A stretch of 32,000 bases of DNA from Candidatus Methylomirabilis limnetica (GTDB lineage: Bacteria; Methylomirabilota; Methylomirabilia; Methylomirabilales; Methylomirabilaceae). Shown here piece after piece: positions 2,398 through 31,850 of this stretch. The stretch's first letter is position 1; each line of letters starts with the position of its first letter. A program made the translations under genes and the position numbers. Location of the stretch: NCBI RefSeq assembly GCF_003044035.1, contig NZ_NVQC01000009.1:30001-62000 (forward strand), read 5' to 3'. The notes beneath the pieces were generated by a model. It was not told the origin of the DNA, ran no database searches, and worked only from the letters and a program-made list of their open reading frames with translations.

Positions 2398-3924
<1,527 letters not shown>

Positions 3925-3934
3925 AGACGAGTTG

Positions 3935-3962
3935 CGGGTTTAGAGTTTCGGGTTTCGAGTTG
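3935..3962. repeat. Degenerate heptamer array (CGGGTTT AGAGTTT CGGGTTT CGAGTTG), inverse complement of array 4386-4413
   Basis: Read directly from the sequence. 3942-3957 (agagtttcgggtttcg) is the exact reverse complement of 4402-4417 (cgaaacccgaaactct). A small palindrome cgagttgactcg lies at 3956-3967. Confidence 0.9.
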
Positions 3963-3994
3963 ACTCGGAACACGGAGTTCGAAACTTCTAGCTA

Positions 3995-4423
3995 ATGGCC
4001 ACTTTCCAACGCCTTGAGGACATCGAGGTATGGCAGAAAGCGCGGGAACTGACGCGCGAGGTCTACACGATTTCAGGTCACGGTTCGTTTGCCAAAGACT
4101 TTGCGTTGCGCGACCAGATTCGAAGGGCCAGTGTTTCGATTATGTCCAACATCGCCGAAGGTTTCGAAAGAAGCGGGACAGCCGAATTTGTGCAGTTCCT
4201 TGCAGTGGCGAAAGGCTCGGCAGGTGAGGTCGTCTCGCAAATCTATGTAGCGGGAGATCAGGGGTATATCGACCCGGACCAGCGTGGTCAATTGCTAGCC
4301 ATGGCCGACGAGATCAGTCGGATGATCGGTGGGTTGATGACGTACCTGCGCAAGTCGGGAATCAGAGGTGCGAAGTATAAATTGACCCGAAACCCGAAAC
4401 CCGAAACCCGAAACTCTCAGTGA
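3995..4423 (+). CDS. Four-helix-bundle protein ('23S rRNA intervening-sequence protein' family), inserted between atpA and atpG
   Basis: MATFQRLEDIEVWQKARELTREVYTIS...FALRDQIRRASVSIMSNIAEGFERSGTAEFVQFLAVAKGSAGEVVSQIYVA... matches the remembered family signature (F..L.VWQKA..L, RD.Q.RRA..SI..NIAEG, F..A.GS..E). No SD. The stop TGA at 4421-4423 lies 4 nt before the atpG ATG. Confidence 0.9.
   Translation: MATFQRLEDIEVWQKARELTREVYTISGHGSFAKDFALRDQIRRASVSIMSNIAEGFERSGTAEFVQFLAVAKGSAGEVVSQIYVAGDQGYIDPDQRGQLLAMADEISRMIGGLMTYLRKSGIRGAKYKLTRNPKPETRNSQ
4386..4413. repeat. Perfect tandem heptamer array CCCGAAA x4, inside the 3' end of the four-helix-bundle ORF
   Basis: cccgaaa occurs at 4386, 4393, 4400 and 4407. 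It encodes the tail ...TRNPKPETRNSQ*. Confidence 0.97.
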
Positions 4424-4427
4424 AGCC

Positions 4428-5300
4428 ATGGCCACACTACGAGACATTAAGCGGCGCATTACATCGGTCAAGAGCACGCAGCAGATCACCAAGGCGATGA
4501 AGCTGGTGGCGGCGGCAAAGCTGCGCCGAGCCCAGGAGCGCATCCTGGAGGCCCGCCCCTATGCGTTCAAGATGCAGGAAGTGCTGGCCAGCTTGGCGCT
4601 GAGAGCTGACCCCCAGTATCATCCGTTGCTCCGCAGACGCGAAACCAGCAGGAAGATCGTGGTGGTCATCGCGTCCGATAAGGGGCTCTGCGGGGGGTTT
4701 AATAGCAACATCATGCGCCGATCCCTGGAGATGCTTCGGGGAACGGCTGACGAGGTGACCGTCACCCTGGTGGTGGTTGGACGCAAGGCGCGCGATTTCT
4801 ATCGGCGACGTCCCTACGCCATTCGATCGGAACAGATCGGCTTCTTCGATCGGCTGGCGTACGACCATGCGGCCGCTTTGGGCCAAGAGCTGGCGAACGC
4901 CTACGTGGCTGAAGAGGCGGACGAGATCCATCTGATCTATAATGAGTTCAAGTCGGTCGCGACCCAGCGGGTCGTCGTGGAGCGGCTACTACCCATCGAG
5001 CCGCTGCAGGCTTCAGAGGAGCTTGCCGCCGTCGATTTTATCTACGAGCCCTCGCCGCAGGCGATCCTGGAGGGGCTGTTGCCCAAACACGTCGAGGTGC
5101 AGGTGTACAGAGCGCTCATGGAATCGCTGGCCGGTGAGTACGGCGCCCGGATGACCGCCATGGATGCGGCGAGCAGGAACGCCACGGAGATGATCGACCT
5201 GCTTACGTTGCAGTTCAACAAGGCGCGGCAGGAACGAATTACCAGAGAGCTGCTCGAGGTGGTCGGAGGGGCCGAAGCGCTACGACAGGCGCGTGGGTAA
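4428..5300 (+). CDS. atpG: F0F1 ATP synthase subunit gamma
   Basis: MATLRDIKRRITSVKSTQQITKAMKLVAAAKLRRAQE...ARMTAMDAASRNA..LI..LTLQFNKARQERITRELLEVVGGAEAL is the canonical gamma N- and C-terminus. Confidence 0.97.
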   Translation: MATLRDIKRRITSVKSTQQITKAMKLVAAAKLRRAQERILEARPYAFKMQEVLASLALRADPQYHPLLRRRETSRKIVVVIASDKGLCGGFNSNIMRRSLEMLRGTADEVTVTLVVVGRKARDFYRRRPYAIRSEQIGFFDRLAYDHAAALGQELANAYVAEEADEIHLIYNEFKSVATQRVVVERLLPIEPLQASEELAAVDFIYEPSPQAILEGLLPKHVEVQVYRALMESLAGEYGARMTAMDAASRNATEMIDLLTLQFNKARQERITRELLEVVGGAEALRQARG

Positions 5301-5304
5301 AAGT

Positions 5305-6803
<1,499 letters not shown>

Positions 6804-19304: not shown

Positions 19305-19345
19305 ATCAGCTATCAGCTATCAGCCATCAGCTCCCAGCTACCAGC
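19305..19345. repeat. Heptamer array ATCAGCT ATCAGCT ATCAGCC ATCAGCT CCCAGCT ACCAGC abutting the hisS ATG
   Basis: Read directly. The last unit ends at the base before ATG 19346. There is no Shine-Dalgarno-like purine run. Confidence 0.95.
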
Positions 19346-25472: not shown

Positions 25473-25507
25473 GAACCTTGAACCTTGAACCTTGAACCTT
25501 GAACGTG
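25473..25507. repeat. Heptamer array GAACCTT x4 + GAACGTG ending 4 nt before the recO ATG
   Basis: gaacctt occurs at 25473, 25480, 25487 and 25494, and gaacgtg at 25501. There is no SD before ATG 25512. Confidence 0.95.
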
Positions 25508-31707: not shown

Positions 31708-31850
31708 AGGTGTTTAGACTGAAGGCTGAAGACTGGAGGTTCTAAATTATCTCGCAAGGCACGAATCGAGCCATTCAAGACCTTTTCGGAGTTTTGTATA
31801 ATCACGCATGACTTGCCCCTAAAAGCCTTCAGCCTTCAGCCTATCTACCT
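31708..31850. mobile_element. Miniature heptamer-bracketed cassette, copy 2 (homologous to 8563..8726) with minus-strand relic resembling a four-helix-bundle protein C-terminus
   Basis: aggtgtttagact + AGACTGA AGGCTGA AGACTGG (31716-36), then a core with cgaatc...caagaccttttcgg, then ctaaaagcc + AGCCTTC AGCCTTC AGCCTAT (31824-44) + ctacct. The arms are 17/19 complementary. The minus strand reads ...NSEKVLNGSIRALRDNLEPPVFSLQS (part of tracked ORF 31614..31805). Confidence 0.6.

Follow-up and report, generated by a model that had tools for sequence, protein, structure and literature searches.

The stretch of DNA considered here (the window, 32,000 nucleotides of Candidatus Methylomirabilis limnetica) contains an ATP synthase operon in which a small open reading frame (ORF) for a four-helix-bundle protein, bracketed by inverted arrays of heptamer repeats, stands between atpA and atpG. 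The gene order is atpI-like, atpF, atpH, atpA, the 142-codon ORF, atpG, atpD and atpC. Specifically, the upstream host gene atpA (F1 alpha; plus strand, 2398-3924; Pfam ATP-synt_ab, E=5e-85, and the ORF list) has its stop codon 3 nt 5′ of the left array, the ORF occupies 3995-4423 of the plus strand, where an initial annotation made from the letters had placed it, and the downstream host gene atpG (F1 gamma; plus strand, 4428-5300) is recognized by Pfam ATP-synt (E=2e-101). The ORF product is WP_107561093.1, which NCBI names ‘four helix bundle protein’, and the gene after it is listed as ATP synthase gamma subunit. At the junction TGA-agcc-ATG (plus strand, 4421-4430) the stop codon of the ORF (4421-4423) and the ATG of atpG (4428) are separated by 4 nt, exactly as had been claimed, and the spacer is 7 nt in the related loci L001, L002 and L005.

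Heptamer arrays are indeed present on both sides of the ORF. The left one, which makes up the 5′ arm (plus strand, 3928-3962), is degenerate and of the GGTTTCG type, with the units GAGTTGC, GGGTTTA, GAGTTTC, GGGTTTC and GAGTT (unit RGTTTCG), and is reported by Tandem Repeats Finder (TRF) at 3928-3961 with period 7, 4.9 copies and 74% matches (alternatively with period 14 and 85%). The right one consists of 4.3 copies of ACCCGAA with 100% matches (TRF, 4385-4414), and together with ACTCT it makes up the 3′ arm (plus strand, 4385-4417, the repeat part running through 4415). This array had been described as CCCGAAA x4 flanking the ORF; the array is there, but it is placed inside the 3′ end of the ORF and not outside it, and its translation is a tail (..TRNPKPETRNSQ) that is not conserved and that comes out disordered in the AlphaFold model. 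The two arms are complementary to each other: AGAGTTTCGGGTTTCG (plus strand, 3942-3957) is found exactly on the minus strand at 4402-4417, an exact 16-nt reverse complement that had already been pointed out and that is expected 0.02 times by chance. When up to 2 mismatches are allowed, 4 complementary matches are observed against a mean of 0.02 in dinucleotide-preserving shuffles of the window, and the arm complement lengthens to 20 nt at 95% and to 32 nt at 88%. A second, degenerate copy of the right-arm repeat (ACTCGGAACACGGAGTTCGAAACT; plus strand, 3963-3986), a direct repeat 71% identical to 4392-4415, lies between the left array and the ATG, and its ability to pair with the 5′ arm allows the left array a local hairpin as well (3930-3993, -25.6 kcal/mol, z=-3.0). 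This proximal repeat is better preserved in L002, L005 and L004 than in the window. An upstream local hairpin was found in only 7 of 75 family loci, and it is therefore a trait of one clade and not of the family.

The family to which the ORF had been ascribed, known from intervening sequences (IVSs) of 23S rRNA, is upheld by profile hidden Markov models, since both PF05635 (E=1e-35, 122.6 bits, cut-off 33.8) and TIGR02436 (E=2e-33, 114.9 bits, cut-off 24) match above their cut-offs. PF05635 is the only domain detected in the 142-aa product, and no nuclease, recombinase or other catalytic domain was recognized with Pfam, NCBIfam or Foldseek. Two crystal structures are matched by a profile of the ORF and 24 relatives, 2GSC (XCC0516, E=4e-22) and 2RLD; both entries contain five chains, and by homology with these the window protein may be a homopentamer. 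The AlphaFold model (pLDDT 86.9) shows four long helices, with a folded core that spans residues 1 to ~122 and is followed from there by a disordered tail; from ~129 onward this tail is translated array. Foldseek matches the model to 2GSC (TM 0.93), 2RLD (TM 0.87) and Avd (4DWL, TM 0.84), a protein of diversity-generating retroelements (DGRs), with the DGR ribonucleoprotein 8UB7 also listed, and the four-helix-bundle fold is like that of XCC0516 and BT_0352. The similarity to Avd is weak at the sequence level (PHROG 3206 at 3e-6; NCBIfam DivGenRetAVD, NF033474, 17 bits with a cut-off of 80). The PF05635-type family comprises 18,668 clusters at 50% identity (E<=0.001), and its domain was still termed functionally uncharacterised in a 2024 survey (PMC11270868). 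Many homologues have C-terminal tails (NPKPETRN, NLKLET) or N-terminal extensions (GFGFRVSGFEFRVS) that are translated arrays, as seen in the database entries P0013, P0021, P0041, P0065 and P0071, where they are gene-calling artefacts of the flanking repeats.

The combination of gene and arrays extends well beyond the window. The family was surveyed with one genome per species and a 25-sequence alignment as query, which gave 80 loci of 50-78% identity and, with the window and three further loci, 84 in all; the hosts belong to Acidobacteriota, Nitrospirota, Planctomycetota, Verrucomicrobiota, Desulfobacterota, Bacteroidota, Ignavibacteriales, Gammaproteobacteria, Brocadia, Mariprofundus and others. 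The density of period-7 arrays is 3.77/kb within the ~330 nt around the gene and 0.175/kb elsewhere, and 64 of the 84 loci have at least one such array beside it. Periods 5, 6, 8 and 10 are not enriched beside the gene in these loci; period 9 is (0.37 vs 0.027/kb), in only 4 loci, matching a clade with 9-nt units. Over intergenic DNA alone the enrichment is smaller (an estimated 3-4-fold per junction), and therefore the reverse complementarity of the two sides is the stronger evidence. More specifically, the best inverted repeat between the flanks scores at least 12 in 52 of 76 loci (control mean ~8), with arms of up to 60 nt, and the consensus units of the two arms are identical in 18 of 33 loci and within 1 nt in 27 of 33, as compared with 3.9% of identical pairs between loci. 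The unit itself varies by locus (GTTTCGG, GTTTCAG, GTTTCTG, GTTCAAG, GTCCAAA, GGGGTTC, TGGTTTG and so on) around a logo G-T-T/c-Y-M-N-R, and the arrays have a median copy number of 4.4-4.6; GT[TC] is present in 58 of 58 5′-arm units, with about 22% expected for random heptamers. Identical units are present in different phyla, and the correlation between protein distance and unit distance is weak but significant (Mantel r=0.20, reached by 0 of 2000 permutations), a picture which suggests that gene and arrays travel together. The gene and its inverted arrays are one unit in many phyla, with co-varying arms. No conserved 23S motif was found in the 85 sequences scanned (the window and loci L001-L084) and no locus lies in rRNA; for the clade of the window, the rRNA IVSs are therefore exceptional.

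Some further arrays were seen in the course of this survey. A sub-clade with a different N-terminus (L071, L076, L077, L082-L084) has inverted arrays of ~9-nt units on GTTCAAA / GTTTAAAC. The window itself contains four other heptamer arrays outside ORFs (5334-5360, 19305-19345, 25473-25504 and 31824-31842), three of them in spacers between co-directional ORFs. (AGCTGAT)x3.9 lies between atpG and atpD and has an exact reverse complement, (ATCAGCT)x5.9, 14 kb off, a pair that is probably coincidental; the AGCTGAT unit is also found in a proteobacterial metagenome-assembled genome (MAG; L007, 1628-1650). (GAACCTT)x4.6 is the reverse complement of a GGTTCAA unit that flanks relatives of the cassette gene; the fourth array is (AGCCTTC)x2.7. 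Apart from the AGCTGAT/ATCAGCT pair of the window, no other cargo gene bracketed by inverted heptamer arrays was found in any of the loci.

The cassette is also embedded in operons in a characteristic way. In 74 of 77 loci (96%) the gene upstream of it runs in the same direction, and in 63 of 75 so does the gene downstream, against 67% for the other adjacent pairs in the same loci (p=3e-10 and p=6e-4, respectively; orientations from crude ORF calls). An orientation bias of this kind must concern the ORF, as the arms, being inverted, are symmetric. The median gap is 76 nt upstream and 39 nt downstream, a short gap to the next gene being common but not general, and the 5′ array mostly begins within a few bases of the stop codon of the upstream gene. 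In the window, a promoter and terminator scan found no plus-strand promoter-like or terminator-like site within 3700-4600, no Rfam match was obtained for 3500-5500, and a PADLOC search gave no match. Read-through transcription seems to be what the cassette relies on, in keeping with the purifying selection to which its protein is subject (see below). The ORF had further been described as lacking a Shine-Dalgarno (SD) motif and atpG as lacking a strong one, and within the window a GGAG-like motif indeed precedes neither start; as a general trait, however, this fails, as many relatives carry GGAGG-type motifs in the sequences read between array and ATG, so that the lack is particular to the clade of the window. 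A count of SD motifs upstream of family members (39/72) was dropped as uninformative, because the arrays themselves hold GGAG-like strings.

More distant branches show the same arrangement in other operons and with other units. In Xanthomonas and Dyella, the spacer between accB and accC contains an orthologue of XCC0516, the gene of Nitrospira nitrificans lies between cheR and cheD with GTTTC-type arms, and another copy is found between NAD kinase and SDF genes. The left arm of the Xanthomonas gene consists of the units GGGAATC, GGGAGTG, GAGAATC and GGGAATC, and its right arm is the mirrored array of CCCATTC type; the two arms (L165, 2429-2459 and 2838-2872) mirror each other unit by unit, the variants GGGAGT and GAGAAT included. 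The unit flanking the XCC0516-type gene is the same GGGAATC that has been catalogued in Xanthomonas by Rehm et al. (2015), who reported 186 arrays and 70 convergent inverted pairs, mostly between co-directional genes, and interpreted the heptamer as G-quadruplex-forming (PMC4692102). Copies on plasmids include one in Riemerella with GGTTCAA/TTGAACC arms and one in Nostoc with (GGGGAAA)n/(TTTCCCC)n arms.

The ORF had been pictured as wedged into the atpA-atpG junction, but a fresh insertion is refuted by its vertical inheritance over Methylomirabilis lineages whose atpG genes differ by a synonymous divergence (dS) of 0.74-1.04. The gene is present at the same junction in L001, L002 and L005, which makes four Methylomirabilis lineages with the window, and its product is 95% identical (amino acids) in an ENA metagenome contig, 81% in Ca. 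M. lanthanidiphila and 78% in a groundwater Methylomirabilota MAG, where atpG is 98%, 91% and 85.5% identical, respectively. The ratio of non-synonymous to synonymous divergence (dN/dS) of the folded core is 0.20-0.33 in pairwise comparisons (atpG, 0.06-0.10), and therefore the protein has been maintained by purifying selection. In every pair the dS of the cassette (0.36-0.60, closest pair excluded; 3995-4381) is below that of atpG (4428-5297), and the GC content of its third codon positions (GC3) is 0.64, as against 0.78-0.81 for the atp genes. Low dS and GC3 could fit an exchange of the cassette between lineages apart from the host genes, or constraints on the RNA. The repeats of the 3′ array (through 4415) are invariant in the three Methylomirabilis junctions aligned together. 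To judge from these comparisons, the cassette is an old resident of the junction that has been inherited vertically in Methylomirabilis.

A wider metagenome scan with atpG (80 loci) shows what the junction looks like elsewhere. In most bacteria, atpA and atpG are 6-60 nt apart with no element between them. A comparison of empty and occupied sites among relatives had been proposed, and ORF-less sites do exist: in L087-L089, where atpG is 67-73% identical, the spacer of 86-90 nt is an ORF-less hairpin of inverted heptamer arrays whose 5′ arm and apex align with those of the window (…TTTCGAGTTGA…), the hairpin of L088 having -34 kcal/mol and z=-3.5. In L085, a close Methylomirabilis relative (atpG 88% identical), the 5′ heptamer hairpin is kept while the cassette ORF is replaced by a DUF559 ORF. 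The hairpin is therefore ancestral at this junction and its content has turned over. The DUF559 ORF (a Vsr-like endonuclease, E=2e-40; L085, 965-1500) is bracketed by GC-rich inverted repeats of its own (…GGGGAGAGGGTTTGGGTGAGGG … CCCTCACCCAAACCCTCTCCC…) and is a second kind of small inverted-repeat cassette at the same site. Among the 80 unrelated atpG loci, 20 have a heptamer array. ORF-less heptamer arrays or hairpins are also seen in the atpG-atpD spacer of unrelated soil bacteria (L119, 1081-1173; L153, 1656-1689; L154, 2211-2316; L098, 2367-2393), and these include GGGATTA-type units resembling the repeats of Xanthomonas and Nostoc.

It is firmly supported that the cassette is a promoterless gene for an Avd-like protein, carried in sense orientation within operon spacers and bracketed by inverted arrays of ~7-nt units, with the gene in the loop of the hairpin that these arrays make; that it is long-lived and protein-coding in the window; and that its family has ORF-less hairpin counterparts. 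The window probably contains a resident copy of this widespread cassette. The long-range stem that had been proposed to loop out the whole ORF agrees with the predicted folding, in which the minimum free energy structure of 3920-4430 closes the ORF with such a stem (-187.6 kcal/mol, z=-2.8). The duplex of the 5′ and 3′ arms has -41.7 kcal/mol and the local hairpin -26; the long-range and local pairings of L002, L005 and L004 are nearly equal in energy. The cassette would then be transcribed only by read-through of the atp operon, and within the atp transcript its 5′ arm would pair either with the proximal repeat, giving the local hairpin, or with the 3′ arm, giving a stem of 20-32 bp that encloses the ORF. 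By analogy, this is the geometry that is cut by RNase III in the rRNA IVS members, and cleavage may also occur here. Ribosomes translating the ORF would have to melt the 3′ arm and would come to a halt 4 nt short of the atpG start codon (7 nt short of it in the orthologues), which could couple the initiation of atpG to translation of the cassette. A protein of this pentamer type might moreover bind the repeat arrays of its own element, and the ORF-less heptamer hairpins at similar sites may be derivatives or partners of the ORF-bearing form.

The idea of an IVS-style cassette living in an mRNA operon stands as far as the architecture goes (inverted arms, stem, protein family, likeness to the Coxiella IVS, occurrence around most of the 84 relatives). 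Several observations, the pattern of mismatches between the arms among them, weigh against the cassette as just described. Across the family loci, the arm mismatches comprise 54 G:U, 52 A:C and 63 of transversion type; an excess of G:U over A:C was considered as a sign of selection on the sense-strand RNA, but there is no asymmetry and thus no support for the RNA model from this side. The mismatches cluster at heptamer phase 7 (22%) and phase 4 (13%), with ~1% in the GTT core. In the Xanthomonas arms 26 positions pair, and the seventh base is mismatched in 4 of 4 units (C:T, G:G, C:C, C:C). The decay of the 5′ arm among the Methylomirabilis lineages is not offset by compensating changes: 16 nt are kept in L001, and 7 of 31 positions are mismatched in L002. 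Some plasmid copies (L176, L178) are without complementary arms; on plasmids, one Calothrix copy has no arrays and one Nostoc copy has arrays that are not complementary. Moreover, 18 of 76 family loci have no array as defined here. The 32-kb window contains no second GGTTTCG array, only arrays of other units. Phase-clustered mismatches without an excess of G:U are not predicted by selection on an RNA stem alone.

The lack of such an excess argues that it may be at the level of DNA that the complementarity is kept, and the systematic mismatch at the seventh position means that it may be a by-product of inverted binding-site arrays or of DNA-level copying. These arguments belong to the main alternative, which we regard as possible but rather doubtful, namely that the cassette is a DNA-level element whose arrays are protein-binding sites or portable homology arms, with the gene being copied by recombination or repair into resident heptamer hairpins, or lost from them, in a RAYT/REPIN-like manner and the RNA stem being incidental. 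The conservation of a core that recurs at a fixed distance is more reminiscent of a binding-site array than of a mere stem. Pairing alone would not require the same GTT core every 7 nt in all phyla, and in Xanthomonas the order of the variant units is mirrored between the arms despite the mismatched seventh position. ORF-less heptamer hairpins and solo arrays occur at the same kind of junction, and in Xanthomonas the gene shares its unit with the many dispersed and often inverted arrays mentioned above. The right-arm repeat is present in the window as direct proximal and distal copies, between which recombination could delete the ORF precisely and leave a hairpin like that of L088; the low dS and GC3 of the cassette fit its exchange independently of the host genes. 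The protein, however, has no recognizable nuclease or recombinase domain, the bias for the sense orientation (96%) shows that transcription of the host operon matters, and the rRNA members are demonstrably processed as RNA (PMC4990558). Furthermore, neither target-site duplications nor fresh insertions were identified, and the window has no other array of its unit. The DNA-level element and the transcribed hairpin cassette that we favour are compatible and not mutually exclusive.

It is unlikely that the element is of benefit to its host as part of the operon, with the hairpin setting the expression of atpIFHA relative to atpGDC through mRNA processing or stability and the protein serving as a co-opted RNA chaperone or regulator. 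Such a role would fit the retention of the hairpin at the atpA-atpG junction in Methylomirabilota lineages both with the ORF and without it, the invariant 3′ array repeats in the aligned junctions, the long-term purifying selection on the ORF and the two alternative pairings of similar energy, which amount to a switch-like geometry. However, the same cassette is carried on plasmids as well as in operons unrelated to atp (acc, che, NAD kinase), which is mobile or selfish behaviour and not that of an atp-specific regulator; the junction has no element in most bacteria, and L085 has its DUF559 cassette in place of the ORF without apparent harm. That the ORF is an orphan Avd gene left behind by a DGR after loss of reverse transcriptase (RT) and template repeat (TR) is very improbable: the similarity to Avd described above speaks for it, but the equivalog score of 17 bits is far under its cut-off of 80 and no RT Pfam match appears in any of the gene tables returned for related loci, and because of these two points a DGR remnant can be excluded for practical purposes; its neighbours are moreover atpA and atpG, and heptamer arrays are foreign to DGRs. 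Least credible is a chance neighbourhood of an ordinary hypothetical gene and slippage-generated simple repeats, since, common as heptamer arrays may be in intergenic DNA (0.175/kb overall and 20 of 80 unrelated atpG loci), the exact 16-nt complement, the mostly period-7-specific enrichment, the complementary units on both sides and their co-variation across 84 loci all contradict it.

A broader and more tentative reading suggests itself, in which PF05635 proteins are the dedicated partners of bacterial heptanucleotide arrays, each clade recognizing its own unit, and the gene-bearing hairpin is the ‘master’ of ORF-less hairpins in operon spacers and rRNA helices. The units in question might be the GTT-core heptamers here, GGGAAT in Xanthomonadales and the 9-nt GTTCAAANN in another clade. 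Should this be true, the 23S/16S IVS elements and the long-noted excess of heptamers in bacterial genomes would be one selfish system. Three separately described oddities share one architecture: (i) the RNase III-excised rRNA IVSs, (ii) the excess of heptanucleotide repeats and (iii) the very large family of ‘four helix bundle / S23 / Avd-like’ proteins. An action of the protein on the arrays would make directly testable the 30-year-old question of the role of the IVS ORF and of the reason for the inverted ends of IVSs, and Xanthomonas campestris would be a tractable organism for this purpose, with its accB-XCC0516-accC locus, a crystal structure and catalogued GGGAATC arrays. There are also consequences for annotation: translated arrays give spurious N- and C-terminal extensions on many database entries, and cassettes split essential operons (atp, acc, che) without being flagged.

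Several known systems resemble the cassette. In a literature search that left subscription journals mostly uncovered, no paper was found to describe inverted heptamer arrays as a general surrounding of PF05635 genes within protein-coding operons, nor was a link between heptamer simple sequence repeats (SSRs) and the PF05635 family, with only the Coxiella paper (PMC4990558) noting heptamers beside the ORF; term searches of the heptamer-repeat papers PMC4692102 and PMC4679880 gave no mention of the four-helix-bundle gene. A first likeness is to the ORF-bearing 23S rRNA IVSs of Coxiella burnetii and Leptospira, whose ORF belongs to the same family (PF05635 / ‘S23p’) and, as in the cassette, lies in the loop of a stem made by terminal inverted repeats, which in the window also close the element with the arms given above. 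According to the text of PMC4990558, from which alone the mirrored-heptamer structure of a true rRNA IVS is taken here, the Coxiella IVS has 2-3 tandem heptamers before the S23p ORF and a 28-bp terminal stem, with RNase III cutting at the first repeat; the heptamers adjoin the ORF as in the cassette, in a number of copies that differs from one Coxiella strain to another. In both cases, short forms without the ORF exist beside long forms that have it. On the other hand, the 23S IVSs are inserted in rRNA helix 25 or 45 whereas the cassette lies in the spacer of a protein-coding operon (atpA-atpG); the former are excised by RNase III, while the latter is known here from its sequence; the Coxiella ORF is reported to be decaying and that of the window is under purifying selection; and only in the cassette does the 3′ arm overlap the coding sequence.

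A second likeness is to the heptanucleotide SSR arrays, namely GGGAATC in Xanthomonas and GGGGAYT in Nostoc (PMC4692102), TAACTGA in Beggiatoaceae and cyanobacteria (PMC4679880) and the cyanobacterial short tandemly repeated repetitive (STRR) sequences. Like the cassette arrays, these are tandem 7-nt units, typically in ~4 copies, between co-directional genes, and in Xanthomonas often in convergent inverted pairs; the window arrays likewise have at least 3 tandem 7-nt units in the spacer of co-directional genes and are STRR-like in this sense. The papers treat such arrays as G-quadruplex or translational elements, and the GTT core of the window clade differs from both GGGAATC and TAACTGA.

The cassette also recalls the RAYT and REP/REPIN systems, in which one small protein gene lies between inverted short repeats and the repeat is also dispersed as ORF-less intergenic hairpins, features reportedly described in the work of Nunvar in 2010 and of Bertels and Rainey in 2011. 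RAYTs are HUH/Y1 transposases. The cassette protein, in contrast, is a four-helix bundle of ~120 aa in which no catalytic motif or HUH/Y1 domain was detected, and REPINs are single palindromes whereas the cassette has tandem heptamer arrays; a gene flanked by the dispersed repeat of its own genome is seen in Xanthomonas, and the 32-kb window has no other array of the GGTTTCG unit, only arrays of other units. Finally, Avd of the DGRs has a homologous fold and family, homologues that crystallize with five chains and a role as a nucleic-acid-associated cofactor, while the cassette is without RT, TR or variable repeat, falls far below the Avd equivalog cut-off and has an entirely different genomic context. 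Thus, the gene annotation, the IVS elements, the heptamer SSRs and Avd were already known, and what appears to be new, to judge from the literature searched, is the general link between gene and arrays and the occurrence of an IVS-type element in mRNA operons.

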